Shown: in pieces, positions 13,456-35,460 of the stretch | How positions within the stretch are numbered: position 1 is the first letter of the stretch | Layout: each line of letters begins with the position of its first letter | DNA from: a virus | DNA: 64,000 nucleotides | Virus record (IMG/VR): IMGVR_UViG_3300035204_001874 | Location: 32,001-96,000 of that record | Reading direction: 5' to 3' (one strand) | The notes under the pieces: generated by a model | The model's database searches: none | What the model was told of the DNA's origin: nothing | The model's input: only the letters and a program-made list of their open reading frames with translations | Translations under genes and position numbers: made by a program

Positions 13456-13479
13456 CAAAGCCTAAGACTCCCTTACAAT
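13452..13479 (+). promoter_or_regulatory. Sigma70-type promoter, near-leaderless
   Basis: TTGACA (13452-13457, overlapping the upstream TGA stop), 16 bp, TACAAT (13474-13479); ATG at 13488. Confidence 0.75.
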
Positions 13480-13487
13480 CTCCCTTG

Positions 13488-14795: not shown

Positions 14796-14801
14796 TATAA
14801 T
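14789..14801 (+). promoter_or_regulatory. GGTGTAAT motif, candidate phage-sigma promoter
   Basis: GGTGTAATATAAT immediately before ATG 14802; the same core occurs upstream of genes at 31067(-) and 50865(-). Confidence 0.5.
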
Positions 14802-21200: not shown

Positions 21201-23696
21201 TGGGCCTGAGACCCCAAGAATAGTTTCTGAATATAAAATTTCGGCTCCGCTAACAGCCAATACGTCAGACAAAGGCGCACTTTGATTAATCGTGTAACTT
21301 GTATCCGAGTTCGTTTTATATAATCTATCTGGATCAATGTTTCCAGTGGGAACGGAATAAAAGGTCCATTTATGTCCAGCGTTTTCTCTATTCCAGCCTG
21401 AAATCTCATAATCTTGAGAGCAATCTCCCATCCCGAAGAATCTATTAGCTGTTAATTTTTGATTATGACGCCCTTCGGTTGGGTGGATTGTTTTTTCATA
21501 TGCGCTATTGTGTATATTGGGGTGTACGTTATTTCCTGTAAGTTGGCCTAAGTTATCTAGCCCTGGTTCATAAAGATAAGTTTCATCGTAGTTATTTGAA
21601 ATTGGGTCTGATTCAAATATAAGGTCCATTTCTCCATTGATGGCCTCAGAAAATCCAGGGTTAGTATATTTTCGGGACATTGGAATATTCCACCCTCCCG
21701 TTTCCATCGTGTGGTAAGGAGGAAGGGTAGGATTATTTATAAATTTCCACATCCACCCCGGAGTAATTGTGAGCGATGCACTTTGCCTATTTGTTTTGTT
21801 GTCTGATACGATTTGTGCGTGAGCAAATGGACCTCCTTCGAAATCATTAGCCCAACCACCCTTGGCGACTTCAGCGTATCTTAGATACGCGGGTTGAGGG
21901 GGGCCAACCGTACCTTTTATGACTCCCGCTGTGGGAACGGTAGCGGCGAAAGCTCTTCTTCCGACGCTCGTGAAATTTATAATTGGGTTAACTTTATGAT
22001 CTTTATATTGTCCGTAAAGCCTCGCTGGATGAAATTCTATGGGAGCTATAGCAAACCCAGTTCTTTCTATTACTGTCGTATCATCCCACCAATAAGCCGC
22101 AGAACCTATATCCTCTTTAAGGATGTGATGCCTTAAGCTCATATCTCGCTCTACCCCCACCGGAAACGCAAGTGGAGCTTGTATTTCGTATTGGTCAGCC
22201 CACTGCCAAGAATAAGGACTCCAAGTTCCCCCGCCATTCTGACATTTTGCTTCGGTTGTAAAATCGCAATGGCCATGCTCTTCACTTCCCGGACCTTCAT
22301 TGTGTGCATGGCTTGCTCCCGCAGCCCAATACCCACCAACATTTTCACAATCTTCTTTGCTTGTTATGGTAAAACCAGCGCATTGTGATGCCCACGTTAG
22401 GCAGTAATTCTTTCCTTCTACTCCGTACCCACACATTCCATACAGGTAATTTCCTTGCGAGTTGTAACAACACCCATGTCTATAAGCATCTCTCCAAGGT
22501 CTCCCGTCTGTTGTTTCGTGATCGTTCACATAGGAGTAAGCTTCAAAGTGAGAGCCATCGGTAACCGTATGCATTAAATTTGAGCCCTCATACCAAGCAG
22601 TCAGCCATGTACCGTCTGCGTGCTTATATGATTCAGCGTTATCAAAGTCCCAGTTATCGCCGTAAAGTGCTCCGATTGGGTAATTTTCTCTTAACCTTTG
22701 CTCTATGTACTCTATAGCTTTTGAGGAATACTGTCCGTACACTGGGGGAGCTTCTACGGTTACCCTACTCAACATGCTTCCGGTAACTGGAGCGATATTG
22801 TAGGATTCATCTATGCATGGATAATCTATTGGTCCGATATTTTTGTACCCAGTTATCTTATCGTCGTCATTCAACACTGGAACGGACACGTCTTCGCAAT
22901 AACGCTCATCTTTCCAGCTAAGGTCTGAATAAACAAATTCTGCTTCAAGTTTGTAGGCTTGAAGCTCGCTATCTTTCATTACTTGGGGATCAAGGTGTCC
23001 ATCGGAAAAGATGTCAGTTAAATCTTCAAAACCAAAAGACGTCATTATCGTCTCCACGGTTCCTTCTGAAGATTGTTCGACTTTAACTTCTTTTAGGACG
23101 TCTTCATAACTTAATTCAGTAAGCGCGACCATGTCTCCAAAAGTCATTTCTACTGATATCCTGTGTTTAAAAGCGAAATACCCAAGCATTCTTTGGTATA
23201 AAAAGAAAACCTCAAAACCGCTTTTCATCCCCTCCATTCCCATCGATAAACCTAATGCTACGGCACACGCAGCAATATCAGTCTTAAGTTCTGAACTGCC
23301 CGAACTTATAACCACCTTTGGTTTAGCGTATTCAACATATTGGTGAAACTTAGATTCGCTATCAAATCCTTCGGCGGCTTGTAATTTTTCTATATTGTCT
23401 TCACCCGAGTCGCTCACTACTGATTCGCCAGCCATACTTTCACTTTTTACAGTTTTGTAACCGCCCCTACCAAGAATGTCCTGAACGGTACTTCCTGCTG
23501 TGGCTCCTGCTGAATCTGACGCCATGCCTAAAATTGCCGCTAATGCTGTTTCCAGCCTTGGAGCAAAATCAGGATTTGGAATATTCTTTACAAAATAACA
23601 AATAACAAAAGAAGAAGATTTCCCCGTAACTCTTATGAAAGTTTTCTCTGGTGAAGTTCGATAAAATTCACTATTATATTTTGTCGGCTTTGACAT
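18222..23696 (-). CDS. Large virion-associated protein (1824 aa), Cys-rich with Thr tracts
   Basis: Long ORF rich in G/T/Y/W/C; carries the C..C..GG.W module shared with the tail genes and poly-Thr tracts. Confidence 0.6.
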   Translation of the reverse strand: MSKPTKYNSEFYRTSPEKTFIRVTGKSSSFVICYFVKNIPNPDFAPRLETALAAILGMASDSAGATAGSTVQDILGRGGYKTVKSESMAGESVVSDSGEDNIEKLQAAEGFDSESKFHQYVEYAKPKVVISSGSSELKTDIAACAVALGLSMGMEGMKSGFEVFFLYQRMLGYFAFKHRISVEMTFGDMVALTELSYEDVLKEVKVEQSSEGTVETIMTSFGFEDLTDIFSDGHLDPQVMKDSELQAYKLEAEFVYSDLSWKDERYCEDVSVPVLNDDDKITGYKNIGPIDYPCIDESYNIAPVTGSMLSRVTVEAPPVYGQYSSKAIEYIEQRLRENYPIGALYGDNWDFDNAESYKHADGTWLTAWYEGSNLMHTVTDGSHFEAYSYVNDHETTDGRPWRDAYRHGCCYNSQGNYLYGMCGYGVEGKNYCLTWASQCAGFTITSKEDCENVGGYWAAGASHAHNEGPGSEEHGHCDFTTEAKCQNGGGTWSPYSWQWADQYEIQAPLAFPVGVERDMSLRHHILKEDIGSAAYWWDDTTVIERTGFAIAPIEFHPARLYGQYKDHKVNPIINFTSVGRRAFAATVPTAGVIKGTVGPPQPAYLRYAEVAKGGWANDFEGGPFAHAQIVSDNKTNRQSASLTITPGWMWKFINNPTLPPYHTMETGGWNIPMSRKYTNPGFSEAINGEMDLIFESDPISNNYDETYLYEPGLDNLGQLTGNNVHPNIHNSAYEKTIHPTEGRHNQKLTANRFFGMGDCSQDYEISGWNRENAGHKWTFYSVPTGNIDPDRLYKTNSDTSYTINQSAPLSDVLAVSGAEILYSETILGVSGPSYWDEFITGYIYTGEEHAGEIVSCMSEWTGYSTTSSKTLNYWWVDPNPPSYFPFSGIENGWHTSRSLASIPNLSRCRALFGTTTTTTAAPTTTAAPTTTTTCDPMDPECGGGGAGGSTTTTTSEDPMMAMCDNPIKVQCPFDCMAGQEGDELEFCNYTQCINGMCSDGSYDNGITPEEWGWAPLYGKQRGENPPRYWRGPFASTRYKFMYPHASGAFAKYYESELKDPEYASLISGFPTKIKFSVKIEEYISKDICSGGYISERGEIVMTHGVKNEEGKYQPVHQKEHAGMSWGNLIDENFSPQSETAEFDNNNDPSSNNTVIEDSTQTRNHSFYDNEVSFCAGNKIGTPDIVQYIGDGPKRATMAFGGYHRFTGYIFDIEATYAKPSFVLEKYGLDYSSIIEALSVQNEGAYNCNIFWDGEMLDTYDPIYFDPMVSDDGTTGIWTKNRYHPTEAKSFTGSMYNEHNIYGDHWMGLRSGCLIAVTGNYDFKGTGFEPLDPQMAQCEDNLLSEKEMYLEEACTNLEGELGIHPGVDPYPQFAEDKVFLFNLSDTGIHMHFRRPVYLDGFEMADGMEMAMYDFGPPNGYGGGDMGLGGCPIYSIPHSISITGTGPIGNKKIELFAKDNDLELEFHKEVIRNEGFLFDAASTGEWSCIANGDGGYDYEKITGHGRMLARGWAATGCVGMDPFGGDMSTTTTTTTCEPGDTECEEGTIPATYVKVSGWREISTIKVTLKDFQPYYETPGELPNDSEFKFVQSGNCSLTGYLSYQNQEEASIFTEGIVLKDVSDDPWFDLIDYPHYASDVLKRGDIVMPNDDKHPVHSAPSKMLTRWNVSTIEGSTVSGGHMLAIKSEAPENYNKYLWPTISDAFHYNGGHMSWESKPKDDGYTYTNTYLMICGEAGQPMDVGENSDHITKRYLITQHWAIYDSLTVDPMINPRYKLKLDKPVGNIGDTIMPKGGYVVPEGTTCWDIKQGLVTGDKQGEEGYKEDSL

Positions 23697-23723
23697 TTTT
23701 TATTCAGGATAACGGATGTTATT

Positions 23724-26700
23724 CTACTCTAAGCCTCCTAATGGATTATTACCACCAGCAGCTTCATATGCATCTGCTATAGTACAGTTTATACCACATT
23801 CCATCATAATTCTAGACGCTTCTTGTGATCTTTTTGCTGCTTCCCGTTCACTTAACGTCTGCCAATCTGGGGTACTGTCAGGTGCGGGGGGCTTGGTGTC
23901 TTTCCAGCATTTATTTACGCAAGCTTTCATTTGCACTCGATCATGTAAGACCGCCCCCCCAAGCATATCTCTCACTACAAACCATGCTTCTTGGTTAGTG
24001 GCCTTAGGCCCATCTACAATGACCCACCTTGTAACTACGCCGCCAACAACGATGCCAATCTTCCAACCTACCCCCACGGGGAAACATATTAAAGCTGCTG
24101 CTCCTCCCGCTATTGTGGCAGCCGAGAGGGCAGCTTTCCCAGCTTCTGCCAAGCCTTCCATAACTGCATTCGCTAGTTCTTGGGTCGCGTTAAACTCTTT
24201 ACTATCTTCAAATTTTCCAGCGAGCGCGGCCCCCCAATGAGCAAAAACATCTTGTTGACCCACAACTATGCTATCCATGCCTAAATGGCAGGTCGCGGTT
24301 AGATAATTGCAATGGTCTGCCCCCCGAGAAGTGCAGGGGCTAACTTCTGTACCTAAGTATTCTGCGTATTTTTTATTTATATAAGTGTTACTTCGTTTTT
24401 CTATACTGTAATCCGCCCTAGAGTACCACGCTGGCATTTTACACTGAGTACCTATAGCTAGTCGTTTTTGATGGTCGAATTTCTTGTATTTTGTTAGGTT
24501 ATTTCCCTTTAAATCTGCAAGTATAGACTCCCTTACTAATTTATATGGAGTAGCCCATGGACCCCTCATTATTCTACGGTACCCTCCCCTAACTGGTTTT
24601 GGACCCATCCCAGGATGCGCTGTGTAGGATATAGTTTCGTCTTTGTATCTGTGATCTGCTGATATTTGAATTATATATTTATCAAATCCTATGCTCGGTT
24701 GAGCTTCTTTAACTAAAGTTCTTTTAAATTTTACATAGTTTGATAGTGCCAGCAATTTTCCTCCTGGGAAAAACCCGTAATTGTATTTCATGCTTAGGCA
24801 CGGGTCGAAACAAAGACCCGCCATTAACTGCAAATTGTCACAGCCGTAATTTTTTCCAGGATCAACCCCTAAGTTTTTTCCGTAATAATAATACGTACAT
24901 CTTGGGTCTCCGTGGGTAAGGGGGTGGCTTACTAGGGGGCTACCTGGTTCTTCTCTACGGTCATCTACGCAATGTAGTCTGATTGTGCCACATCCAGTTT
25001 TCATGCCGTGTCTGCCAAATCGTAAACCTTTAGTATTGTAACCAGCACCAAAAGCTTTTTTGCGGGTGTCCTTCATCCATTTAACTTTTGCACTAATTTT
25101 TTTGCCTTGTTGCTTTAAATAAAGACCGTAAATAGCGGGAGGATCATAAAGGTGAATTTGTCTATTGTGACCAGCGGAATAGAAAGCTTCAGATAGTCCG
25201 TTCCCGTTTCTATCCCTGTTGTGGTTCATCGTTTTCCATTCAAAAGCATAAGGACCATACATTGGCTCTCTTTTTAAGTAAGTATTGTAAGGTTTTCCCC
25301 CCCAAAAAAATTGGATAGCTGATGAGCCCCTCCTTAAACCTGGAGCAATGTAGCTGTGGTTCGCTGTTCTCTTCGTGCCTTTCCCGTTACAAGCTAACCA
25401 AACCCTTTGGTGATTCTCTACAAAATAAAGCATGAATCTTCCAGCGGAACCAGAGCGTGCGTTTATTTCGCTCCCCGGAATTGGTTCTCCATGGCCGCAC
25501 CAGCCACAATTGCTACCAGCAAGCGTAGTTCCTCCAATTAATCGTTGAGCATCCTTAAAATTTCGCTCTCTTGTCCCGCTTCTTTCCCCTCCCCAATAGT
25601 AGACATCATCTGTGTCGGCAGCTTCGTATTTAAATATCTTGCCTTGACCGAGACCTTTGGTTTCATGATATCCTGCTTTGCCAAATCTTGGTATTTTTCC
25701 TAAAAGATTTGAAAATTGCCAAGCTGTTCCCATGCCCCAATAACCAATCATAAGTTCTGGATAATCCCGATAAGAGTCTGTCTCTGGCCAAGGGTAAAAT
25801 TCTCCATGATGAAAAAGCTGCCTTGGTTTTAGACCGGGTGGATTATGATCACACAATACAGCAGGATCACGAACACTAAAATGTCTAATGGCGGACCCAT
25901 TAAACGTGAGGCTTAATCTTGGACCCTTGTTCCCAGGGTACATTTCGTAATTTTTACACTTAGGTAAATGTTGATATCCGTAAATTAAATCCCCTACTGA
26001 TTGCGATCCTTTTTGGTTCGCGTCCAACATTAGCCCGAAAGGGTATAGTAACCCGTATTCGAAATAAGATGCTTGATCTGCTCGCGTACCCCGAATGTCT
26101 GTTTGCACAGGGGGTTGATAAGTTCTAGTTGTACCTCTAAAGTTTTCCATTCCAACTGGAGCGAATGATTCGCAGTTGTTGGATAGGTTCATGTACGTTC
26201 TCCAAGTATTTTCCCAAGCAGCGTTTGGGTCTCTTGTAATGCCAGCAAACGGCATAACCTTATTTCCTGCTGCCCCTGGTATCCCTTGCCACTTCATATT
26301 TGCGCCGAGTTGTTCTCCCGCTCCAAAAAGTCCAGGCACAAAAGATACAGACGTGAAGTCTTTTTTTCCAAACCAAGGATTTACGGATATCCCAAGGCCA
26401 AGTGTCCCTTCAGCGGGGGAACCGTTTCTAACTGACACATCCATTCGTAACCAGTTTTCCGTTTCTAAATTCGCATACTCACTCCTCCTCATTCCAAACC
26501 TTCCAGAGGCAAGCGCAAAATAGTAATATTCTTCATCAGGGTCATCACTACCGTACCCTTTCGCGCCTTTTTGAAATATCATTGATGCAGTATTGCGTCC
26601 TGTTTTTACCGTGTAAGAATCCATATCGGCTCCTGGTTTTAACCCGTCGCAAGATATCGATTCGAACCAACCTCCATTTTTTGGGTTTTGGTATACGATT

Positions 26701-29700
26701 CCTTCGCAATCTAGCTTATATCCAAATGTTCCATAACCAACGGTGTACGTGGTGTTACCGTTTACCACGTTCCCCTTTGTTAAAACGTAAGAGCTAGTTT
26801 GATTATTCGCTCCGTTATGCGTTTCTTCTAGGTTTACAGAGCCACTGACCCACAAAGTGGTAACGTCAGGGTTACCTCCAGCGCAAGGGGAGGCGTTATT
26901 CGCGCAATGAGTAAAGGTTCCGTGTAAGCCGATTTCTTCTGGACGGTAATTACAATAAGCTTCTGGGGGCCACTCCGCATCACCTTGAGCAATCGTTCCC
27001 GCTGTTAACATCGCATCTTGATTAATTTTGGGCGTGTTGGGCCATTTGCAGGTGTTAGGATTCCCAGCGTTTTTTAAGAATTGAGCTTCATTACCTTGGT
27101 ATTCGTCTACATGACTTTCAGCAACACTTTCGTAAGGGTGAAACAGGGTACAATCTTTGGTTCCTCTCCCTCCCCTTCCTTCTATGCAAGCCCAATTCCC
27201 CTCTAAGGAAGCTGGTTCTGCGTACTCTAAAACAGACAACATTGCTTTGTTGCCACCTATCGCGTCATCTAATGGGGAGCTTACGTTAGTAAGAGCAGGA
27301 TCATTTGTATCTAACTTACTTTTGTGAATTCTATACCACTGCATGTCTATTGGGTAAAGACTTTGCCCATCGGGGTCTACTAATTTTAAATTGTTTACCC
27401 AAAAGTCAATTTCTGGATATCCCTTACCGACTTTATCCTCTGGTATTGTGTGGTAATCTACAACGTCGCACCGGAACGTCGGGGATTGCCCAATTTTACA
27501 TACAGCATCCAATGGTTGTTGGGTGAAAATCGGAGTAAAGCAGGAAAAATTAGGATCAAGTTTACCTACGCCACCCATTCCTTGAAGCCTCCATGGAGAC
27601 CTTTTTATTGCAGCGTCTTTAATCTTTCCTATTATGCTTGCGCTAATGTTGTAGGATTTACGTGGCAAATCCCCGCCACAATTTACATTATTGTACATGC
27701 CCCCATAGAAAAAGTGATTTGCTCCTGCTTGAAGTTGCACAATGTCTTGTATACCTGTTACTAAATCCTTAGAAGCGTAAACACCTTGGAAGTATCTTCG
27801 TTCTACTTCCGGCATATCATCGACAGTTTGTGCGCTATCAACCGTAGCTCGCCCCCAATGATTGTCATTTAAATAGCCAGTCATATGGTCTACCGCAAAA
27901 GTTATTTGGCTTAGTGGGAATAGATCAGTAGCCATACCTCTGTTGTGGTTTTCTACGTATCTGGTAAGTAGCCTTCTTTCTCTGCTTTCGATGAGCCTTC
28001 TGTAAAAATCTTCATCAGCCTTCCCTGGTACTTCTACCACATAAGAACAAAAGTTTTTCAATATATGATTCCAAGCGTTGATAGCTTTTTCGCCATTGCA
28101 AAAGACGTTATTTCTTCTGTCATCTTGCAGTTCTCGCGTGAATCTTTCATATCTTTCATTTGTGAATAAAATATCGCTTCTATCTGAGTCTATTGAGTAG
28201 GTTAACGGTCCACTTTGAAATAGCTCATCTGGGCCTCCTCCGCCTTTGAACAAAATAAGATCGCTATTCTTCCATTTTCCTAGATTCGCTTTGCAGGTTA
28301 CTTCATCTGTGTATTGAGGAAGCATTTGATTGCTTGCTAGTGACCAACAAGTTCCAACTTCTACGCTTTTTAAAAAGTGCTCTTTTGTTCCGCCAAGATG
28401 ATAATCAAAGTCGTCCTTTAATCTGCTTAACGCTCTTTTAAATCCTTCTGATCCGTCTCCAACAAGGTCTTTTTTCCATTCGTTAGATGCGACTATTAGG
28501 GGCCAATTAGCCCAGATAAAGAAGCCTATATTTCCAGCAAACCACTCGCTTGCTCTTTGTTCGCTTTTAGCTACTTTCAGAAGGGTTCTGTAGTCGTCTT
28601 CAGAGCAGGAAGAGTTTAAAACGGGAGGTTCAATATAAGCGGCAGTTGTGTTGTTGACGCTTCCTGGAGGAATTTCATTCCCGACGCCATCACAACAATT
28701 ACAGTCGGAAATATTCAAAGGCCAATCTCTTGGAATGTCGCCAGCTACTGGTATAACACCTCCAGCGAGAGGTACCCCTGGATTAGGTGATGAAATTTGA
28801 TTTGGTTGATTATCACACGAAAGCTGCCATTTACGCACATTCCATTGTCCTGCCACCCACTGCTCCTTTCTAACATTGCACCAAAACTGAGTTACCCCAG
28901 GTTGCTCGACCCCCTTTACGTAACATCTACCGCCACCAAAACCTTCGCAATTCCACTCAGCGGTAATTTCGTTACCGTGAATATCATTCGTTGGAGTACA
29001 GTAGGAGTGGCAGTCTTCTTGTGGTAGACTGCTATCTCCCCAGCAAGTAGAAGAGGCGTTGGTGCTGCCAGCGGTAGAGCCTATTTCTATATCCCACGCA
29101 TTATTTAAGGCGTCACGTTCCTCTTGGGGGTCAGAATCAGCATTTAAAACATAACATTCCTCATCAATTTTAATAATTTTATATTTGAGATATTGAGTTT
29201 TAGCTTTATTTCGAGCCTCGAATGAAGGACCACTATCAAATTGTTTTTCTACCCTTAGTATTTTCGCAGCATTTCTAGATGTCCAATTGCCCCCGTCAAC
29301 AGCGTTGTTTGGTGGGAAGTTTTTAAATTCGTCAAGTCTCCTATAGTAGTAAAAATGATACGCTAAATCATCCACACCGTCATTGGTTGAACCAGAAAGA
29401 TCAGCGGAGGTTCTTCCGCATTTATTTAAAAATCTAGCCCCGTAAAAACCGAACTTGCCTATTGCAGCATAATAAGGAACATCAAAATATTCATTTGGGC
29501 AAGCGTGTATTGGGGTTGCTGAAGACCAAGGGAGATAATCGATAGTATTTGGGCACTGCCTGTATGTCCAATAATGATTTTGGGTCGCCATCGAAGCACC
29601 CTTGCCTTCCATTCCAACAAATGAAGTTACAAGATTACTTGAGGTGTTTTCCGTTTGGTTAAAGAACTCTTCGTGATTATATCTAAATATGAAATGCCAA

Positions 29701-31025
29701 TAGACAGAATCACTATAACCGAGGAAGTTAGCTTGATCATTAAATGCTGCTCCAGGTCCAGTCGCAGCCCCCAATTGAATATTCGTGCAAGAAGAGCAAG
29801 CTGACACTGCTGTATTTGTTTCTAACGCTCTAGCGTTGCAAATTTTTCCTCTTAATTTAGTTTCGGTAATGCCCGCAATTGGATAGGTTAGCCTAGGGTA
29901 AGCGTTATTTCCTCTTTGGTTCAAAAAAGTTCCTGCGTCATCCAAAAACCAACCTTGGTATAACCCTTGTCCACCCGTATAACAAGTCTGAGTCCTATAA
30001 ACATGGGCTTGCGCGTGCCCATCCATATCTACCGCCGAAGGAAATGGGTTGTCATTATAAAAATTTCCCGCTAAACGAGCGTACACTGAGCCTGGGTGCC
30101 AACCATAAGTCGTTTCAACAAAGTAAACGGACGGTTCAAATTCTGGAGGGCATTCCTCTGAAGGTGCATGAATGGGGTGGACTTCCCCTCTCTTCGTGTC
30201 TTGCGACACCAATGGGCCAGTAGTTGGGAAAGTCGTTCTGATACCCCAATAGGCGCGTTTTTCCTCAATGGACATTTTTTTGCAACACGACCCATAACCT
30301 CCGGGTAATTCTCCAGCTAACATGGACAATTCCGCCATCTGCCCCTCAAGTCCCTCATCGCCCCCTTCTATTGTTAGTGTCGGATTCTCTCCGTAGGGAG
30401 GTTGGTAATACCCCGGCGCATAAAATGCATTATAAAAATTATAATTACCGGATATTCCTTGATTTTCTATGGGCCTTGTCCCGTGGCAAAGCTCAAAAAT
30501 AGGCAATGAATAAGTGTATTCAAAAGTTACAGCTTCTCCTCGACCCTTGGTGCTTGCTATGGCCATGTGGGGGGATTGATAAAAGCTTTGTAATTTTCCT
30601 TCTTTTTTATTGTATTGATGAAAAGCGTCAGGGCCACGATCATTATCAGCAGCAACGTAACCTTGGTATATGAGAGGGAAGGTGCCTTCGCCAGCTATCC
30701 GAGTTACCAAAGCTCCCGTCCAGTAATTATCTACACTGTCGTCGCGAGCGTAACCAAGGGGAACAGATTTGATATTTAGCTGGCTCCAATTTAGCATGTT
30801 AGGCATTGTCCCATCAGGTGGGGAGCCAAGGTTGCCTCTCGTGTCAGATTTGAAATAATTTCCTTTATACTCAATTACGTCATTTAACTGGTAAGTTTCC
30901 CTACTTGACCACTGATAGGTGCCGCCTCCTTTGGGATATATTCTAAGATAGGTGGCCGTAAGAGCCCCCAAGAATTCGGGGGGGAGCTTTGTGCGATAAT
31001 TCTGTATGAACTCTGGTACCTGCAT
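23724..31025 (-). CDS. Large virion-associated protein (2433 aa) with CBM5/12-like module, interrupted Ig-like domain and hydrophobic C-terminus
   Basis: WSSRETYQLNDVIEYKGNYF...P...W; PIFTQQP...G....FRC...QWY...YYF.LASGRFG; nested Cys/Trp modules. Confidence 0.65.
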   Translation of the reverse strand: MQVPEFIQNYRTKLPPEFLGALTATYLRIYPKGGGTYQWSSRETYQLNDVIEYKGNYFKSDTRGNLGSPPDGTMPNMLNWSQLNIKSVPLGYARDDSVDNYWTGALVTRIAGEGTFPLIYQGYVAADNDRGPDAFHQYNKKEGKLQSFYQSPHMAIASTKGRGEAVTFEYTYSLPIFELCHGTRPIENQGISGNYNFYNAFYAPGYYQPPYGENPTLTIEGGDEGLEGQMAELSMLAGELPGGYGSCCKKMSIEEKRAYWGIRTTFPTTGPLVSQDTKRGEVHPIHAPSEECPPEFEPSVYFVETTYGWHPGSVYARLAGNFYNDNPFPSAVDMDGHAQAHVYRTQTCYTGGQGLYQGWFLDDAGTFLNQRGNNAYPRLTYPIAGITETKLRGKICNARALETNTAVSACSSCTNIQLGAATGPGAAFNDQANFLGYSDSVYWHFIFRYNHEEFFNQTENTSSNLVTSFVGMEGKGASMATQNHYWTYRQCPNTIDYLPWSSATPIHACPNEYFDVPYYAAIGKFGFYGARFLNKCGRTSADLSGSTNDGVDDLAYHFYYYRRLDEFKNFPPNNAVDGGNWTSRNAAKILRVEKQFDSGPSFEARNKAKTQYLKYKIIKIDEECYVLNADSDPQEERDALNNAWDIEIGSTAGSTNASSTCWGDSSLPQEDCHSYCTPTNDIHGNEITAEWNCEGFGGGRCYVKGVEQPGVTQFWCNVRKEQWVAGQWNVRKWQLSCDNQPNQISSPNPGVPLAGGVIPVAGDIPRDWPLNISDCNCCDGVGNEIPPGSVNNTTAAYIEPPVLNSSCSEDDYRTLLKVAKSEQRASEWFAGNIGFFIWANWPLIVASNEWKKDLVGDGSEGFKRALSRLKDDFDYHLGGTKEHFLKSVEVGTCWSLASNQMLPQYTDEVTCKANLGKWKNSDLILFKGGGGPDELFQSGPLTYSIDSDRSDILFTNERYERFTRELQDDRRNNVFCNGEKAINAWNHILKNFCSYVVEVPGKADEDFYRRLIESRERRLLTRYVENHNRGMATDLFPLSQITFAVDHMTGYLNDNHWGRATVDSAQTVDDMPEVERRYFQGVYASKDLVTGIQDIVQLQAGANHFFYGGMYNNVNCGGDLPRKSYNISASIIGKIKDAAIKRSPWRLQGMGGVGKLDPNFSCFTPIFTQQPLDAVCKIGQSPTFRCDVVDYHTIPEDKVGKGYPEIDFWVNNLKLVDPDGQSLYPIDMQWYRIHKSKLDTNDPALTNVSSPLDDAIGGNKAMLSVLEYAEPASLEGNWACIEGRGGRGTKDCTLFHPYESVAESHVDEYQGNEAQFLKNAGNPNTCKWPNTPKINQDAMLTAGTIAQGDAEWPPEAYCNYRPEEIGLHGTFTHCANNASPCAGGNPDVTTLWVSGSVNLEETHNGANNQTSSYVLTKGNVVNGNTTYTVGYGTFGYKLDCEGIVYQNPKNGGWFESISCDGLKPGADMDSYTVKTGRNTASMIFQKGAKGYGSDDPDEEYYYFALASGRFGMRRSEYANLETENWLRMDVSVRNGSPAEGTLGLGISVNPWFGKKDFTSVSFVPGLFGAGEQLGANMKWQGIPGAAGNKVMPFAGITRDPNAAWENTWRTYMNLSNNCESFAPVGMENFRGTTRTYQPPVQTDIRGTRADQASYFEYGLLYPFGLMLDANQKGSQSVGDLIYGYQHLPKCKNYEMYPGNKGPRLSLTFNGSAIRHFSVRDPAVLCDHNPPGLKPRQLFHHGEFYPWPETDSYRDYPELMIGYWGMGTAWQFSNLLGKIPRFGKAGYHETKGLGQGKIFKYEAADTDDVYYWGGERSGTRERNFKDAQRLIGGTTLAGSNCGWCGHGEPIPGSEINARSGSAGRFMLYFVENHQRVWLACNGKGTKRTANHSYIAPGLRRGSSAIQFFWGGKPYNTYLKREPMYGPYAFEWKTMNHNRDRNGNGLSEAFYSAGHNRQIHLYDPPAIYGLYLKQQGKKISAKVKWMKDTRKKAFGAGYNTKGLRFGRHGMKTGCGTIRLHCVDDRREEPGSPLVSHPLTHGDPRCTYYYYGKNLGVDPGKNYGCDNLQLMAGLCFDPCLSMKYNYGFFPGGKLLALSNYVKFKRTLVKEAQPSIGFDKYIIQISADHRYKDETISYTAHPGMGPKPVRGGYRRIMRGPWATPYKLVRESILADLKGNNLTKYKKFDHQKRLAIGTQCKMPAWYSRADYSIEKRSNTYINKKYAEYLGTEVSPCTSRGADHCNYLTATCHLGMDSIVVGQQDVFAHWGAALAGKFEDSKEFNATQELANAVMEGLAEAGKAALSAATIAGGAAALICFPVGVGWKIGIVVGGVVTRWVIVDGPKATNQEAWFVVRDMLGGAVLHDRVQMKACVNKCWKDTKPPAPDSTPDWQTLSEREAAKRSQEASRIMMECGINCTIADAYEAAGGNNPLGGLE

Positions 31026-31033
31026 CTTTTCCC

Positions 31034-31061
31034 TTGACTTTTCCTTCTACCCCTGTATAAT
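31034..31061 (+). promoter_or_regulatory. Sigma70-type promoter
   Basis: TTGACT (31034-31039), 16 bp, TATAAT (31056-31061); ATG at 31072. Confidence 0.75.
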
Positions 31062-31071: not shown

Positions 31072-31644
31072 ATGATACAGTTTTATAAGCCTAATGCTAA
31101 AAATATGGGGGCTGCTTGCTCGTTTTGGTATAGCCCGCAAAATAAAGCATTCTTTGCGTCTATCATACGTCAAGCCTCTTGGGATGCTAAAAGCAGAACT
31201 GGTTCTTTTCGAAAAAATAAAGATAATCCACAAAAAAACGTTAAAATTAAATTAAATTTAAATGAAGTTGGTGGAATATTAGACTGTTTAGAGAATTGTA
31301 GAGAATTTGAAGGATATCACAACAGTCCACAGGCGGAACATATTACCAGAATGAAATTCGCCCCCTATATGAAGGAAGGTAACCAATTAGGACATATCTT
31401 TATGGCAACGAAAGAGCCAAAAGATGACCCCTCAGAAAAGGTATCTTTTAGTATAGCTCTAAACTTTGGAGAATCTATCGCTCTCCGTCAGTGCTTGCTA
31501 TTTATGATTGATACCCTATTCTCTGATAAGGTTGCGGAGATTAAAAGTAAAGATAACTCCAAAACTCAGAAATATCAAAAAACCGCCGCCCCCAAAGAGG
31601 AAAAAGCAGCATCTCCAGTTGATATAGATGACATCGTGTTTTAA
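31072..31644 (+). CDS. Whirly/PC4-fold-like single-stranded DNA-binding protein
   Basis: Collinear similarity to the Whirly pattern (FYK..., KLNLNEVGGIL, EFEGYH, MKFAP...GHIF, IALNFGE) and an SSB-like tail DIDDIVF. Confidence 0.65.
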   Translation: MIQFYKPNAKNMGAACSFWYSPQNKAFFASIIRQASWDAKSRTGSFRKNKDNPQKNVKIKLNLNEVGGILDCLENCREFEGYHNSPQAEHITRMKFAPYMKEGNQLGHIFMATKEPKDDPSEKVSFSIALNFGESIALRQCLLFMIDTLFSDKVAEIKSKDNSKTQKYQKTAAPKEEKAASPVDIDDIVF

Positions 31645-33555
31645 ATGAAAAAGAAAAAAATACTTTTCCAAACTGATTACTGTTTGGCAAAGACTGGCTT
31701 CGGGCGTAATGCAAAAATCTTGCTTGAATACCTGTACAGAACGGGCAAGTACGACTTAGTCCATTACGTAGTTGGTCTAAATTATTCTAATCCCGAACTG
31801 AAGCGGACTCCTTGGAAATCTGTTGGGTGTTTACCTGACAGCCAGCAAGAAATGCAAGAGCTTCAAAAAGACCCAAACGTAGCGAGATTGGCCAGTTACG
31901 GGTCTCACTACATAGATAGAGTTATTCAAGAAGAGAAGCCAGATATTTATATGGCAACTCAAGATATCTGGGGCGTAGACTTCGCAATAGGGAAAAAATG
32001 GTGGAATAAAATCACCTCTGTTATCTGGACGACTTTGGATTCTCTCCCAATTCTTCCTACCGCAGTAGAGAAGGCTAGAAAAATAAAAAACTATTGGATA
32101 TGGAGTAATTTTGCAGTCAAAGCTTTACATAAGCTTGGTCACAAGCATGTCAAACAGGTTTCTGGGGTCGTTCATGAAAAAGAGTTCTATCGATTAAAAG
32201 ATTCCGAAAGGAAAAACCTAAGAAAAAAACACGGAATACCACAAGACGCTTTCGTAATCGGCTTTGTTTTTAGAAATCAGCTTAGAAAATCCGTACCAAA
32301 TCTTTTGCAGGGGTACAAAAAATTCAAAGAAAAAAACCCTAACAAAAAAACATTTTTACTTTTTCATACCCACTTTGGTGAAGGCTGGAATATCCATAGA
32401 TTAGCTGATGAACATGGAGTTAACAAAAAAGAAATACTAACCACCTACGTATGTAAGGCTTGTTTAAATTACGAAGTTAAGCCTTTTACAAAGCAGGACA
32501 TTGATTGCAAAATTTGTTCAGCTAAAAAATCTCAAGTGACAACGAGTCCACAAGTGGGAGTGGATGAGCCTCAACTCAATCAAGTTTATAATTTAATGGA
32601 CGTTTACGCTCACCCATTCACATCAGGTGGTCAAGAAATCCCAATACAGGAGGCTAAACTAACAGAATTAATCACCCTCGTTACCAACTACAGTTGCGGA
32701 GAAGATATGTGTGTACCCGAAGCTAAATCATTAGCTTTAGATTGGGCTGAGTACAGAGAACCAGGAACAGAATTTATCAAAGCTTCTACCTGTCCAGAGT
32801 CTATATCAAAACAGCTTCAAAAGGTCGTGGAGATGGACCCTAATCAAAGAAAAAAAGAGGGAGAAAAAGCTAGGGAGTGGACCATAAATAATTATTCTAT
32901 TAATGTGATTGGGCCTTTATTTGAAAAGTTCATCGATGAATCGCCCTTTACTGATTATGACTTTTCGCAAAAAGAAGAAGAAAAAGACCCCCACTATCAG
33001 CCCCCCTCAAATTTAAGCGATGAAGAGTGGATTCTTGAAATGTACCATAAAATTCTGAAGATGAGAGACGTTGATAATCAAGATGAAGGGTTTAAATACT
33101 GGATGGCGGAAATAGATAAAGGGACCGATAGGAGAAATATTGAAAACTTTTTCCGTCAAACAGCCGTAAAAGATAACCAAAAAAATCAAAAAGTAGATTT
33201 TGCTGACATCTTAGGCAAAGACGACAAAGGCAAAAGGGTTCTTTATGTGATGCCAGAAAGCATTGGTGACGTTTATAATTCTACAAGCTTATTTAAATCA
33301 ATAAAAGAAACCTATCCAAACTACAATTTATATGTCGCAACTCAACCGCAGTACTTTGAGATACTAGAAGGTAACCCTTTCATTTATAAAATAATACCTT
33401 ACACACCCCAAATGGACAACTTGTTGTGGCTAGAGGGCTCTGGGGAACATGACGGCTATTTTGAGATAGCGTTTTTAGCTCACTTAGGAACGCAGAGGAT
33501 GTTAAATTACCTACATAACGGTAAAGATAAAATCGCTTACGAATTAAAAAATTAA
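31645..33555 (+). CDS. Multidomain glycosyltransferase: GT4-like with CxxC insert, DUF4214-like helical domain and GT9 N-terminal lobe
   Basis: KTGFGR, FVIGFVFRNQLRK, YNLMDVYAHPFTSGGQEIPIQEA; CKAC...CKIC; LSDEEW..MY..IL.....EGFKYW; VLYVMPESIGDV. Confidence 0.8.
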   Translation: MKKKKILFQTDYCLAKTGFGRNAKILLEYLYRTGKYDLVHYVVGLNYSNPELKRTPWKSVGCLPDSQQEMQELQKDPNVARLASYGSHYIDRVIQEEKPDIYMATQDIWGVDFAIGKKWWNKITSVIWTTLDSLPILPTAVEKARKIKNYWIWSNFAVKALHKLGHKHVKQVSGVVHEKEFYRLKDSERKNLRKKHGIPQDAFVIGFVFRNQLRKSVPNLLQGYKKFKEKNPNKKTFLLFHTHFGEGWNIHRLADEHGVNKKEILTTYVCKACLNYEVKPFTKQDIDCKICSAKKSQVTTSPQVGVDEPQLNQVYNLMDVYAHPFTSGGQEIPIQEAKLTELITLVTNYSCGEDMCVPEAKSLALDWAEYREPGTEFIKASTCPESISKQLQKVVEMDPNQRKKEGEKAREWTINNYSINVIGPLFEKFIDESPFTDYDFSQKEEEKDPHYQPPSNLSDEEWILEMYHKILKMRDVDNQDEGFKYWMAEIDKGTDRRNIENFFRQTAVKDNQKNQKVDFADILGKDDKGKRVLYVMPESIGDVYNSTSLFKSIKETYPNYNLYVATQPQYFEILEGNPFIYKIIPYTPQMDNLLWLEGSGEHDGYFEIAFLAHLGTQRMLNYLHNGKDKIAYELKN

Positions 33556-33556
33556 A

Positions 33557-34726
33557 ATGCACCAATTAGAATCATACGCTTTGTCTTGTGGGGTTAAAAT
33601 CGATAAGCCTTATATGTACGAACACTATTTTCCGATACCAACTGATTCTGAATATATCACGATCCAAAGAGAAGCTAAGTTTCCGTCTAGGCAATACCAA
33701 AGTTGGCAGCAAGTAATTGATTTAATCCACCCAATTTTGGAGAGGAACAATTTAAAAATATTACAGATTGGATCAAAAGAGGATAAGCCTCTAAAAAAAG
33801 TAATCAATCTTTCAGGCACCACCACTCTGAAACAGGCTAATTATATTATAAAAAATGCAAGTCTTCACCTAGGTATTGATAGTTTTGCTATCCATATGGC
33901 CTCCGCCCTAGATAAAAAAATCGTTGGATTATATTCCAACATGTTACCAGAAAACTCTGGTCCCTATTGGTCTGATCCTGAAAAATGTAAAATAATTGTT
34001 TCTCCTAGGGGAACGAAGAGGCCAAGCTATTCATTTGATGAGAGCCCCAGAACAATAAACAATATAAAGCCCGAGGAAGTCGCGAAAGCGGTCTGTGACT
34101 TACTTGATTTAAATTTTAAAAAGCCATACGAGACGATACACATTGGAGAAAGGTATCACGAAGAGCCCTTCTTGGTATTTTCTCCTAAATCTGTGCATTT
34201 TGTAGAAGGAAATGATAAACCGCTTGAATACAGAATGGATTACCATTTTAATGAAGAAAATCTTATCAAGCAATTGCAAATTTCTAAGTGTGGTATCGTA
34301 ACGGATAAGCCTATTAATCTCAAAATATTAGAAAGATATCGCCCCAATATAGCTCACTTAATTTACCAAATTGAGGAGCACGATAACCCTAAATTTATAA
34401 GTCACGCTCGTAAATTGGGCATTAATGTCATGCTGGTCTCTCGGCTTTCAGACGAAAAAATAAGTGATAAAAAAATAAATTATTATGATGTGGCAAGAAT
34501 CAACCACATAGAAGAACCAGAGGAAGAGTTGGTGGCGAAGCTTGAAAAGTTAGATAATTTATTTTATAAATCAAATAAGGTTATAATGTCTGAGCGGCAG
34601 ACCTTTTCAAGTTTTCCCAAGTATCAAAAGGGTACGCCTTCCATGGGTAATTTTGAGGCTGTAGAGTGCTCTGAGAGATTTTTTGATGATTTAGACCACT
34701 TTCATATAGTTAAAATGCTTGACTAG
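33557..34726 (+). CDS. GT9 (heptosyltransferase)-like C-terminal lobe plus unknown domain
   Basis: RQYQSWQQVI, ILQIG, NLSGTTTLKQ..YIIKNASLHLGIDSFAIHMASALDKKIVGLY. Confidence 0.8.
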   Translation: MHQLESYALSCGVKIDKPYMYEHYFPIPTDSEYITIQREAKFPSRQYQSWQQVIDLIHPILERNNLKILQIGSKEDKPLKKVINLSGTTTLKQANYIIKNASLHLGIDSFAIHMASALDKKIVGLYSNMLPENSGPYWSDPEKCKIIVSPRGTKRPSYSFDESPRTINNIKPEEVAKAVCDLLDLNFKKPYETIHIGERYHEEPFLVFSPKSVHFVEGNDKPLEYRMDYHFNEENLIKQLQISKCGIVTDKPINLKILERYRPNIAHLIYQIEEHDNPKFISHARKLGINVMLVSRLSDEKISDKKINYYDVARINHIEEPEEELVAKLEKLDNLFYKSNKVIMSERQTFSSFPKYQKGTPSMGNFEAVECSERFFDDLDHFHIVKMLD

Positions 34727-34746
34727 CTAAAAGGTCTTGCTATAAT
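34719..34746 (+). promoter_or_regulatory. Sigma70-type extended -10 promoter, leaderless
   Basis: TTGACT (34719-34724), 16 bp, TGcTATAAT (-10 at 34741-34746); ATG at 34753. Confidence 0.8.
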
Positions 34747-34752
34747 TTCTTC

Positions 34753-35460
34753 ATGGCGACCAAAAAAATAAAAAGCCAATTCATTAAAAGGGGTGCCGAT
34801 GGATTGATTAGTGGGGCTGATTACGTCTTTAACGAAGACGGAGCAATCGATTGGAGAGCGATGGTCAAAGCTCAATATCTTGTCCCAGACAGAAACAAGA
34901 CTCAAGAAACTGACGTAACCTTACTTCCAGACAGCCAACTTATCATTCTCCTCGGTGGCATTAAAGAGCTCGCCCAAATTAGGGGGTATACTTCTGTAAA
35001 GTATGCGGTAAAATGCCCCAGTCCAGAATACGTCGTAGCTACTTGCTCTATCGATTGGGTTCCCAACTATGAAACAGAAGGGCATGTTATCACTTTTTCA
35101 GCGATAGGAGATGCTTCGCCTAACAACACCAAAAGTTTTGCAAAAAACTTCCTTGGCCCTATCGCTGAAAATCGAGCTTTTGTAAGGTGCGTCAGAAACT
35201 TTCTTAAAATTAATATCGTTTCCCAAGAAGAGCTTCCAGAAAACAAAGCAAACCAAACTTACCCTGAGCAGCATCAAGCGGCTGTTGGCCCTCATTCGCT
35301 TTTGGAATCAGCGATGAGAGAAAAAAAAGTGACCCTAGCAAACGTGAAAAAAAGACTAGAAGATGAAGACTACGACGGAGCTACGGACATTTCTACTATC
35401 TCAGACATACCCAAGGTAAAAGTCTTTGAGTTAATAGAAAGAATTAAGAAGGTTCCTTAA
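34753..35460 (+). CDS. Putative Rad52/Erf-like single-strand annealing protein
   Basis: GGIKELA..RG, GDASPNN, IAENRAFVRCVRNFLKINIVSQEEL resemble the 'A.tRA..RalR....I.....EE' motif of phage SSAP-like proteins. Confidence 0.5.
   Translation: MATKKIKSQFIKRGADGLISGADYVFNEDGAIDWRAMVKAQYLVPDRNKTQETDVTLLPDSQLIILLGGIKELAQIRGYTSVKYAVKCPSPEYVVATCSIDWVPNYETEGHVITFSAIGDASPNNTKSFAKNFLGPIAENRAFVRCVRNFLKINIVSQEELPENKANQTYPEQHQAAVGPHSLLESAMREKKVTLANVKKRLEDEDYDGATDISTISDIPKVKVFELIERIKKVP

Follow-up and report, generated by a model that had tools for sequence, protein, structure and literature searches.

The 64,000-nucleotide stretch of marine phage DNA analysed here (IMG/VR record IMGVR_UViG_3300035204_001874, positions 32,001 to 96,000; below, the window) encodes a protein of 190 amino acids whose predicted structure has the Whirly fold and whose C terminus carries a linker predicted to be disordered and, at its end, an acidic tip that is conserved. 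This Whirly-fold protein is probably, with a likelihood that we put at about 60%, the single-stranded DNA-binding protein (SSB) of its phage clade, acting in DnaE-based replication and UvsX-type recombination. The assignment is based, first, on the fold, the weak sequence match to Whirly proteins and the architecture of basic core, linker and tip, and second, on the genetics: a single-copy core gene behind the DnaE gene, with its own promoter, in phages whose related genomes have no recognisable OB-fold SSB family. The gene and its parts are as follows.

31034..31061, + strand: sigma-70-like promoter, TTGACT-16 nt-TATAAT, 11 of 12 consensus matches
31072..31644, + strand: coding sequence of the Whirly-fold protein, 190 aa, from ATG at 31072 to TAA at 31642-31644, stop codon included
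31072..31572, + strand: Whirly domain, residues 1-167 (AF2 model, VIA-align, family conservation)
31573..31620, + strand: low-complexity linker, residues 168-183 (pLDDT below 50 from residue 170, predicted disordered)
31621..31641, + strand: acidic tip DIDDIVF, residues 184-190, aromatic at its last position (family conservation)

The translation begins with MIQFYKPN, ends with DIDDIVF and contains all the segments quoted in an earlier note on this DNA. A longer reading frame from the ATG at 31006 was rejected as gene start, since the homologues begin at MIQFYKPN and the promoter-like site lies within the extension.

Whirly domain and relationship to plant Whirly proteins

The AlphaFold (AF2) model of the 190-aa protein has a pLDDT of 88.6 and a pTM of 0.78, with residues 1-160 mostly above 90. 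It consists of tandem bbbba repeats in one chain, in which two antiparallel sheets are packed on two helices. In the model, the strands of the first sheet (residues 2-6, 14-21, 26-33, 36-38/43-45 and 56-61) are followed by a helix (63-75), and those of the second (79-84, 90-101, 104-116 and 124-131) by a long C-terminal helix of 36 residues (132-167). Foldseek displayed at ranks 1-21 plant Whirly or MRP1/2 chains throughout (E 1.2e-5 to 3.5e-4). VIA-align gave Z scores of 15.4-16.3 to plant WHY1/2/3, PBF-2 and StWhy2 and of 15.0-15.4 to MRP1/2 of T. brucei; these ten Whirly and MRP entries span 15.0-16.3, and the next fold, PUR-alpha, follows at about 8. The best match, AtWHY2 (Z 16.3), superimposes with an rmsd of 2.4 Å over 133 aligned residues. 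The model therefore has the Whirly fold (type I PC4-like domain), as the earlier note had proposed from the letters of the sequence. An OB fold is absent from the model, and the protein has no match to PF00436; PC4 (PF02229) was matched neither by the protein nor in 5 near-complete related genomes. The core (residues 1-135) is basic, with a pI of 9.15 (family median 9.2; 141 of 150 members exceed 8), and Y5, K6, G13, Q34, F46, K60, E65, H83, G107 and E134 are conserved in the family.

A relationship to plant Whirly proteins is also seen at the level of sequence. When a family profile built from 150 sequences was run against 177,635 PDB sequences, seven matches were obtained at E≤10, and the five best are plant Whirly chains (E 0.0036, 0.0083, 0.0083, 0.018 and 0.1); MRP1 is sixth (E 0.67) and the seventh is unrelated (E 2.3). 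This resemblance exceeds chance and points to homology, at a weak sequence level. Four of the five motif pairs that the earlier note had proposed were reproduced by the HMMER profile alignment, which places IKLNLNEVGGIL, EFEGYH, GHIF and IALNFGE opposite LSVTEIGSII, CEFFH, GHFF and VTKAE of p24. The remaining pair, that of IQFYK, is not covered by this alignment. No Whirly chain was among the 7 PDB matches at E≤10 of a profile made from the N-terminal 58 residues only, so that this parallel is unsupported at the sequence level.

The Pfam family Whirly (PF08536) was not matched by the 190-aa protein, even at E≤10, and a search of 4 related genomes gave no match to it at E≤1. Among the 150 relatives, 21 matched it at E≤0.1, with 1.7e-5 as the best value; every other Pfam family was matched by at most 4. 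Since PF08536 misses the protein itself and is matched by only part of its relatives, we file the phage proteins as a family of their own within the Whirly fold class, which is probably homologous to PF08536. Other searches gave little: a sub-threshold match to BEN in a single-sequence Pfam search, no family in PHROGs, no match in a single-sequence search of the PDB sequences, no match for gene or protein by tblastn and megablast in 50,697 phage records, and only the same family, without plant proteins, when the family profile was run against a word-indexed protein database.

The plant organellar Whirlies (StWhy1/PBF-2 p24, StWhy2, AtWHY1/2/3; PF08536), which bind ssDNA according to passages in PMC7549692 and PMC9070903, have the same tandem bbbba fold as residues 1-160. 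They also share the motifs around TEIG, FxxH and GH/GF, the Glu with which helix 2 begins, the basic core and a variable C-terminal part, whose acidic and aromatic tip may be equivalent to that of the phage protein. The phage protein differs in that it is only 12-16% identical, is phage-encoded with a DnaE polymerase gene as neighbour, and has no PF08536 match, transit peptide or KGKAAL motif. KGKAAL is described in part of PMC9070903 as the ssDNA-binding motif in the first sheet of higher-plant Whirlies, and the same part reports that algal and liverwort Whirly-like proteins are also without it. It is absent from the 190-aa translation, whose first strand reads IQFYKPNAKNMGAAC. A broad PC4-like/Whirly class of beta-sheet ssDNA binders takes in the phage Whirly protein together with the T5 PC4-like SSB (4bg7) and the bacterial PC4-like proteins YdbC/SP_0782. 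The T5 and bacterial proteins each consist of one bbbba unit and pair with a second chain (type II), whereas a single chain of the phage Whirly protein contains the two repeats (type I). The PC4-like nature of the T5 protein shows that non-OB SSBs are open to phages (PMC7549692).

A variable linker and a conserved acidic tip

The segment behind the conserved E134 ranges from 32 to 123 residues across 150 members. The linker, rich in E, K, P, A, S and Q throughout the family, diverges even between homologues of 70-80% identity, whereas the tip stays constant. Phe or Trp is the last residue in 118 of 153 full-length relatives, compared to 79 of 799 control ORFs, and a hydrophobic end with at least two acidic and no basic residues in the last eight is found in 109/153 and 89/799, respectively; Asp or Glu make up 39% of the last eight residues across the family. 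On the core-domain tree, Phe and Trp were interchanged at the tip at least 19 times. Trp is the last residue in 61 of the 153, a share that is probably higher than is usual for SSBs. The tail of linker and tip is a conserved, selected feature; the earlier note had pointed out the linker ending in DIDDIVF, which is present here and whose tip is kept in the relatives.

The same tail had been taken for one of the bacterial SSB type. Its elements are indeed there (disordered linker, acidic tip, hydrophobic or aromatic end), and bacterial SSB (PF00436), T4 gp32 and T7 gp2.5 follow the same logic of core, disordered linker and acidic tip with a hydrophobic or aromatic end; like the phage Whirly protein, they are encoded by a single-copy gene of a replication module, but their core is an OB fold and that of the phage protein is not. 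The better reading is a Whirly architecture shared with the relatives rather than an addition of bacterial SSB type, because plant Whirlies have a Glu-Trp tip and ChmC of phiKZ has an acidic tip with Phe. In StWHIRLY1, Glu271/Trp272 contact Lys188 of the Whirly domain and damp ssDNA binding, according to part of PMC9070903.

The tail does not discriminate DNA from RNA binders, since the RNA-preferring phiKZ ChmC has one too: the C terminus of phiKZ gp67 (ChmC) is an acidic stretch with a terminal Phe. ChmC (phiKZ gp67, PhiPA3 gp61) is the one characterised phage Whirly protein, an RNA-binding Whirly-fold tetramer of nucleus-forming jumbo phages with a disordered C-terminal region that prefers ssRNA (Kd 58 nM) over ssDNA (184 nM) (PMC11077065). 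MRP1/2, which match the model as well as the plant proteins do, form an RNA-annealing heterotetramer in the mitochondria of trypanosomes. That these Whirly-fold relatives bind RNA speaks against an SSB. The phage protein could accordingly be an RNA-binding chaperone of the ChmC or MRP1/2 kind that acts on phage mRNAs, but this is unlikely: the family profile has no similarity to phiKZ gp67 (hhalign probability 0.14%, E 0.43), and the sequence matches are led by the ssDNA-binding plant Whirlies, with MRP1 only behind them. ChmC is described as built of bbba repeats, with an N/G-rich region that forms condensates, and its target is mRNA at the phage nucleus, whereas the proteins of the present family have about 190 residues, a linker of the above composition instead of one rich in N and G, and a gene that lies downstream of DnaE in nearly all loci (see below).

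Genomic neighbourhood and the search for another SSB

The family is large: at 50% identity it forms at least 455 clusters, nearly all of them from viruses that have not been cultured. Its members come from contigs of 35-200 kb that belong to uncultured phages of the sea and of fresh water. A search of 185,579 species genomes found relatives on only 3 short MAG contigs of inconsistent taxa. The DnaE and DnaB proteins of the nearest cultured phages among 50,697 phage records are less than 30% identical, so that this collection contains no cultured phage of the clade. All six near-complete related genomes have a single copy of the Whirly gene. Its surroundings in the window are:

8571..18218, + strand: replication/recombination module (Pfam and PHROGs; joined to the Whirly gene in relatives), with the following eight genes
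8571-9644, + strand: UvsX-like recombinase (Pfam/PHROGs)
9641-10054, + strand: endonuclease-like ORF, 137 aa (PHROGs)
10054-11541, + strand: DnaB (Pfam/PHROGs)
11541-12458, + strand: primase (Pfam/PHROGs)
12460-13455, + strand: PD-(D/E)XK nuclease (Pfam/PHROGs)
13410-14795, + strand: PHP (Pfam/PHROGs)
14995-15642, + strand: exonuclease (Pfam/PHROGs)
15609-18218, + strand: DnaE core of a split DnaE polymerase (Pfam/PHROGs)
18222..31025, - strand: two giant genes (1824 and 2433 aa), here between DnaE and the Whirly gene
31645..35460, + strand: glycosyltransferase-like gene (636 aa), GT9-like gene (389 aa) and an ORF of 235 aa, abutting the Whirly gene (Pfam and PHROGs)

In relatives, the order UvsX-DnaB-primase-nuclease-PHP-exonuclease-DnaE is kept upstream of the Whirly gene on the same strand. 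Of 80 related loci, 78 have DnaE itself upstream in the same orientation; the median gap is 38 bp, and in 47 of these 78 loci the distance does not exceed 87 bp. In the phage studied here the distance is 12.8 kb; homologues of the two giant genes are found beside the Whirly gene in only 7 of the 80 loci. On the other side, the 636-aa glycosyltransferase-like gene adjoins the Whirly gene in 78/80 loci (median gap -6 bp), and the Whirly gene heads a glycosyltransferase unit, a bond as tight as that to DnaE. Since it stays with the glycosyltransferase genes at 12.8 kb from DnaE, the linkage to replication is one at a module boundary, and this position, together with a promoter of its own, counts against the SSB reading.

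The -10 element of that promoter ends 10 nt upstream of the ATG, which implies a leaderless mRNA or one with a very short leader. When 57 distinct upstream regions from relatives were compared, 38 had an equivalent promoter (score at least 10/12, -10 element ending 5-12 nt before the ATG), as against 50 of 660 control ORF starts. Such a host-type promoter suggests early expression, which would also suit a transcription factor or nucleoid organiser, a role first proposed for PBF-2/p24 and for WHIRLY1 of plastid nucleoids; here it would work on the DNA of host or phage at an early stage of infection. In the entry title of 1l3a, p24 is a transcriptional regulator, and Whirlies compact nucleoids according to a passage in PMC9070903. 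We regard such a role as very unlikely, given the conserved place behind a polymerase gene, an acidic docking tip that is atypical of such factors, and the lack of a tie to phage sigma-factor genes, a place that is taken by another protein:

967..1266, + strand: DUF736-like protein, 99 aa, with core, linker and acidic tip, ending in EEELI

The gene for this DUF736-like protein is present in 24 of 34 related records, including all six near-complete ones, and follows a sigma-factor gene in 22 of the 24 loci. Its model, a helix and a four-stranded meander, is not an OB fold; it had no Foldseek match at E≤0.001 and a best VIA Z of 3.9, and PUR-alpha and T5 PC4 match it at noise level only. Our literature search found no functional paper on DUF736. 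The protein is a candidate either for a rival SSB or for a sigma-linked factor, and the existence of a second conserved protein with linker and acidic tip also weighs against the SSB reading. In the complete 178-kb relative, a loose filter for acidic tips was passed by 7 of 227 ORFs: the Whirly protein, an RNR small subunit, the PD-(D/E)XK nuclease, a sigma factor, the DUF736-like protein, a helical-looking ORF of 136 aa without Pfam match and an ORF of 63 aa.

No OB-fold SSB had been apparent in the window, and this holds for the 28 ORFs scanned with Pfam, none of which matched an SSB family; four giant ORFs and a small 5' ORF (1-396 / 52-396) were left out of the scan. PF00436 scored above cut-off in none of 34 related records, nor in any of the 6 that are at least 90% complete. 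The gp32 and Enc34/gp2.5-type families were found in none of 4 related near-complete genomes, which are weak negatives because these searches rang in no control genome. A sliding clamp of the DnaN or gp45 type was likewise not found in 5 near-complete genomes, with the gp45 search above cut-off in no control genome. Two small ORFs were considered as cryptic SSBs and dropped: the 137-aa ORF at 9641-10054 is endonuclease-like by PHROGs, and a homologue of the 121-aa ORF at 8225-8590 occurs at just 1 of 80 loci.

The phage could use the SSB of its host instead. With host SSB or the DUF736-like protein at the fork, the Whirly protein might be an accessory of recombination and repair that coats resected ssDNA and either guards against illegitimate recombination or aids the UvsX-like recombinase. 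This would agree with the service of plant Whirlies in organelle genome stability and repair (described in part of PMC9070903), with the UvsX-like recombinase and the PD-(D/E)XK nuclease in the module, the latter having an acidic tip that ends in Phe or Trp in 32 of 43 distinct tails of relatives, and with the second acid-tailed core protein. It is rather improbable all the same: the six near-complete genomes have no recognisable SSB family, and the DUF736-like gene goes with the sigma-factor gene, not with replication genes, and its product is not modelled as an OB fold. Moreover, the two roles overlap, because SSBs serve both.

Proposed function and meaning of the family

As the SSB of its phage, the Whirly-fold protein would bind ssDNA on its two beta-sheets without sequence preference, as StWhy2 does, for which the basic core is indirect support, and the long C-terminal helix would build a tetramer, like the helices that hold Whirly homotetramers together. 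In the free protein the tip may lie against the basic face that binds DNA, much as Glu271/Trp272 of StWHIRLY1 contact Lys188; once DNA is bound, the released tip could dock on partners in the replisome and in recombination, like the tails of SSB, gp32 and gp2.5. The strong promoter and the nearly leaderless mRNA would provide the stoichiometric amounts that an SSB needs.

To our knowledge, OB-fold SSBs serve all well-studied replisomes of cells and the majority of those of phages, and the PC4-like protein of T5 is a rare exception. The present family appears to place a Whirly domain in this role and to keep the linker-plus-tip design of SSBs. If that holds, it would add a second and widespread alternative to the OB fold, and the tail would make a clean case of a mechanism that is either convergent or shared. 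In the library searched, we found no paper describing a phage Whirly-fold replicative SSB, and a wider literature search on non-canonical SSBs yielded nothing relevant. The protein is small and well predicted, and its function can be checked by simple binding and pull-down assays.

Whirlies were called plant-specific in a 2022 review. With the phage family they gain relatives outside eukaryotes that can be detected by sequence and whose C-terminal tip, too, is acidic and aromatic. It thereby becomes possible to test where the plant organellar Whirlies came from and what their autoregulatory tip does. A bearing on that origin, which the earlier note had suggested, is plausible. More specifically, and doubtful at present, one may speculate that Whirly core, linker and acidic/aromatic tip are an old non-OB SSB module of phages that travels with DnaE-type polymerases and from which both the plant Whirlies and ChmC descend. 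If true, Whirlies would join Twinkle and the phage-type RNA polymerase as phage-derived parts of organelle DNA metabolism, and the autoregulatory Glu-Trp tip of the plant proteins would be what is left of a docking tail like that of SSBs.

The Whirly gene and its viral family

P0001, the Whirly-fold protein studied here, is encoded by the following gene.

31072-31644, + strand: coding sequence of P0001 (190 codons, then the stop TAA)

All segments quoted in the earlier note are present in the translation, which begins with MIQFYKPN and ends in DIDDIVF. The frame is also open from an ATG at 31006, and this start was rejected in favour of 31072 because the homologues begin with MIQFYKPN and a promoter-like site lies within the extension. 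As a single sequence, P0001 gave only a sub-threshold match to BEN in Pfam and no match in PHROGs, among the PDB sequences or, by tblastn and megablast, in 50,697 phage records.

A word-indexed search returned 35 relatives. Exhaustive phmmer over 1.84 billion cluster representatives returned 455 at E<=0.001 and 232 at E<=1e-10, all of them unnamed, about 170-230 aa long and without Pfam labels. In IMG/VR a relative is found on 183 stretches, of which the best 80 (contigs of 5 to 203 kb) were analysed as related loci. Since only three short MAG contigs carry a relative among 185,579 species genomes, the family is essentially viral. Its conserved positions are Y5, K6, G13, Q34, F46, K60, E65, H83, G107 and E134, and the gene is present in one copy in each of six near-complete related genomes. 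The window comes from a large uncultured phage; among cultured phages, no relative of its DnaE or DnaB exceeds 30% identity. Seawater and marine metagenome runs contain near-identical DNA (nine rows with at least half of the sampled words, two of them possibly the source); no RNA run was among the matches listed.

Fold and probable kinship with plant Whirly proteins

The AlphaFold2 model of P0001, built from a 33-sequence alignment, has a pLDDT of 88.6 and a pTM of 0.78 and is predicted to be disordered from residue 170.

Residues 2-6, 14-21, 26-33, 36-38/43-45 and 56-61: strands of the first sheet
Residues 63-75: first helix
Residues 79-84, 90-101, 104-116 and 124-131: strands of the second sheet
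Residues 132-167: second helix

In the close homologues P0009, P0012, P0014 and P0015 about 26 residues are inserted into the hairpin that joins strands 2 and 3 of the second sheet (columns about 121-150 of alignment A1), the remainder being unaltered.

The Whirly-like fold proposed in the earlier note was borne out by the model. Among the Foldseek matches listed against the PDB, ranks 1-21 (E 1.2e-5 to 3.5e-4) are all plant Whirly proteins (Arabidopsis WHY1, WHY3 and WHY2, potato PBF-2 p24 and StWhy2) or the T. brucei proteins MRP1/2, and PUR-alpha is the next match. The best matches in BFVD are uncharacterised phage proteins, with a weaker one in Pseudomonas phage EL. One of the best carries the source annotation 'Whirly transcription factor'. 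A role of P0001 as a transcription or nucleoid factor we regard as very improbable.

The resemblance is also seen in sequence. A profile of 150 full-length family members (A2), run against 177,635 distinct PDB sequences, gave seven matches at E<=10.

Comparison of P0001 and its family with PDB chains (chain; VIA-align Z against the P0001 model; E of the A2 profile)
AtWHY2; 16.3 (rmsd 2.4 A, 133 residues aligned); 0.018
AtWHY1; 16.1; 0.1
PBF-2 p24; 16.0; 0.0036
StWhy2; 15.5; 0.0083 (two sequences)
AtWHY3; 15.4; -
MRP1/2; 15.0-15.4; 0.67 (MRP1)
PUR-alpha; 6.6-8.2; -
All other folds; about 6 or less; -
RNA polymerase subunit, unrelated; -; 2.3

The alignment pairs lsltEiggii of the family with LSVTEIGSII of PBF-2 p24, efsayH with CEFFH, Gfsls with GHFFNLS and ltfgEa with VTKAEF, and these motifs coincide with the most conserved family residues E65, H83, G107 and E134. 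Four of the five motif parallels drawn in the earlier note were thereby reproduced. The remaining one, IQFYK, is not covered by the alignment, and residues 1-58 used alone as a profile found no Whirly chain. When the 150 members were scanned individually against Pfam, 21 matched the Whirly family PF08536 at E<=0.1 (best 1.7e-5) and every other family was matched by at most four. The ESM Atlas neighbours are viral clusters, in one of which 13% of the members carry PF08536. P0001 itself falls short of PF08536 and is without the KGKAAL motif, which higher-plant Whirlies have (PMC9070903). For these two reasons we keep it apart from the Pfam family and treat it as representing a separate family that has the Whirly fold and is probably homologous. 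In plant Whirlies, which are tetramers, ssDNA is bound both on the sheets and between them (PMC7549692), and with this precedent, the modelled fold and the basic core (pI 9.15 in P0001; family median 9.2, above 8 in 141/150), P0001 very likely binds nucleic acid.

Genomic setting and promoter

In the window, a replication/recombination module comes after a sigma-factor gene and genes for sugar modification. Its order is UvsX-like recombinase, endonuclease-like ORF, DnaB, primase, PD-(D/E)XK nuclease, PHP, DEDD exonuclease and DnaE core, and giant opposite-strand genes come next. The Whirly gene has these neighbours.

18222-31025, - strand: two giant genes, of 1824 and 2433 aa, lying between the Whirly gene and DnaE
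31645-35460, + strand: 636-aa glycosyltransferase-like gene, GT9-like gene and 235-aa ORF, downstream of the Whirly gene

Window ORFs were compared with those of the 80 loci. In 78/80 the Whirly gene is preceded, on its own strand, by a DnaE homologue, at a median gap of 38 bp (within 87 bp in 47/78, at about 0.8-1.0 kb in a further 15); giant genes intervene in the window and only seven of the relatives. Homologues of the exonuclease are found upstream in 72 loci, of PHP in 70, of the PD-(D/E)XK nuclease in 69 and of the primase in 61, and further out those of DnaB in 59, of the endonuclease-like ORF in 47 and of the UvsX-like gene in 40; the counts fall solely because the 10-kb flank runs out. 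Downstream, the 636-aa glycosyltransferase-like gene adjoins the Whirly stop codon in the window and abuts the Whirly gene in 78/80 loci, where the median gap is -6 bp; after it come the GT9-like gene in 64 and the 235-aa ORF in 63. The Whirly gene thus lies where the replication module meets a block of glycosyltransferase genes, and in the window phage it stayed with the glycosyltransferases, which weakens an argument from guilt by association alone. A role as accessory factor of recombination and repair, for which the UvsX-like and nuclease genes of the same module might speak, we consider unlikely.

Within the module, DnaE is encoded in two pieces, one for PHP and one for the polymerase core, and the DEDD exonuclease gene lies between them (13410-18218, + strand), an order kept in at least 70/80 relatives. 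The 137-aa endonuclease-like ORF (9641-10054, + strand), between the UvsX-like and DnaB genes, matches HNH/homing endonuclease families in PHROGs (E 6.5e-8); at about 50-65% identity in 47/80 loci it is unusually well conserved for a homing endonuclease and may be a resolvase or other fixed part of the module.

The Whirly gene is preceded by its own promoter-like site.

31034-31061, + strand: predicted sigma-70-type promoter TTGACT-16-TATAAT, 11/12 consensus match, ending 10 nt before the ATG

A site of at least 10/12, whose -10 element stops 5-12 nt short of the ATG (in most cases 6-7), is present in 38 of 57 distinct upstream regions of relatives, a count that under-scores at least one locus where the start rule took an upstream in-frame ATG; the same kind of site precedes 50 of 660 control ORF starts. 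In many relatives the -35 element and the end of DnaE overlap. The transcript is predicted to be driven by host sigma-70 and leaderless or nearly so, which would fit a protein required early and in quantity.

The C-terminal tail and the proposed role

For the tail, 153 of the 184 collected proteins were taken as full length (at least 165 aa and the N-terminal motif); the 31 dropped were mostly fragments. The last residue is F (57) or W (61) in 118/153, and 109/153 end in a hydrophobic residue with at least two acidic and no basic residues in the last eight; for 799 further ORFs from the same loci, each at least 150 aa long, the numbers are 79 and 89. Several exceptions carry the same motif 1-3 residues short of the C terminus. 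Between 32 and 123 residues separate E134 from the C terminus. E, K, P, A, S and Q are abundant ahead of the tip, and D or E make up 39% of the last eight residues. Among homologues at 70-80% identity the tip is constant and the linker rewritten. In a FastTree built from the core domain alone, the class of the last residue (F, W or other) changes 41 times, compared with a mean of 68.3 and a minimum of 60 in 200 shuffles. F and W interchange at least 19 times (117 sequences), so it is terminal aromaticity that is kept, not one given residue.

The earlier note had read this tail as of the bacterial SSB type. Linker and acidic tip are indeed conserved, but a bacterial borrowing is less favoured in view of the tips of plant Whirlies and ChmC. 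In StWHIRLY1, Glu271 and Trp272 of the C-terminal variable part contact Lys188 of the domain, mutation of Trp272 increases ssDNA binding, and the contact residues are reported to be conserved throughout the Whirlies (PMC9070903). The one phage Whirly protein described as characterised, ChmC of nucleus-forming jumbo phages, is a homotetramer that binds ssRNA (58 nM) better than ssDNA (184 nM); its disordered C-terminal region drives condensates, and its acidic region is treated there as an electronegative cluster (PMC11077065). Translated from the public phiKZ record, gp67 (ChmC; L115:12160-12900) has an acidic stretch and a terminal Phe after an N/G-rich region. It thus has a tip of the kind seen in the P0001 family and in SSBs, but no profile similarity to the family, and an RNA chaperone of the ChmC or MRP kind is a decidedly unlikely role for P0001. 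The acidic aromatic tail probably belongs to an architecture that the family has in common with plant Whirlies and perhaps ChmC.

Of 43 distinct tails of the PD-(D/E)XK nuclease (12460-13455, + strand) in relatives, 32 have an acidic tip with a terminal F/W; the window copy ends otherwise. DnaB tails carry at least three acidic residues in the last eight positions in 22/36. The Whirly and nuclease tips together hint at a docking site common to several proteins of the module. Searches of five near-complete related genomes revealed no phage clamp gene.

The earlier note saw no OB-fold SSB in the window, and no recognisable SSB family was found in the related genomes either. PF00436 was above cut-off in 0/34 records (0/6 of those at least 90% complete), its sole weak match (E 0.002) lying inside an 876-aa frame of DnaE size, and PC4 was found in 0/5 near-complete genomes. 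The gp32 and Enc34/gp2.5-type families gave 0/4, a weak negative because neither search gave a positive in any control genome. Applied to G003, a complete 178-kb related genome, an acidic-tip filter left seven ORFs, among them a small DUF736-like protein with a copy in the window.

967-1266, + strand: DUF736-like protein

Its product (about 85-130 aa) has a conserved 65-residue core, a variable linker and an acidic tip with two terminal aliphatic residues. The gene is present in 24/34 records and 6/6 near-complete ones, and directly follows the phage sigma-factor gene in 22 of the 24 loci; it is tied to transcription, not replication. The model (pLDDT 75), a short helix and a four-stranded meander without a convincing PDB match (best Z 3.9), is not an OB fold. 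It may be a factor linked to sigma or another ssDNA-binding protein, and is a rival candidate for the SSB role.

Taken together, the placement after DnaE, the single-copy core status and the strong promoter, along with the lack of a recognisable SSB and the SSB-like linker and tip, favour P0001 as an SSB in replication and recombination, with a probability of about 0.6. In the free protein the tail tip would bind back to the basic face; on DNA, the tail would dock partners, as in bacterial SSBs in function.

Whirly-fold proteins of phages are already known, from databases and, for ChmC, in print, as are non-OB SSBs, the SSB of phage T5 being PC4-like (PMC7549692); Whirly-like domains are also mentioned for the Shedu and Menshen defence systems. 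In the papers found by our literature search no phage Whirly-fold replicative SSB is described, and a 2022 review terms Whirlies plant-specific (PMC9070903). What is new is the combination: a large, DnaE-linked family with a full Whirly core, a sequence resemblance to the plant proteins that is weak but specific, and an SSB-style linker with an aromatic acidic tip, in phages without a recognisable SSB. The family also raises an evolutionary possibility, a phage origin of the Whirlies of plants.
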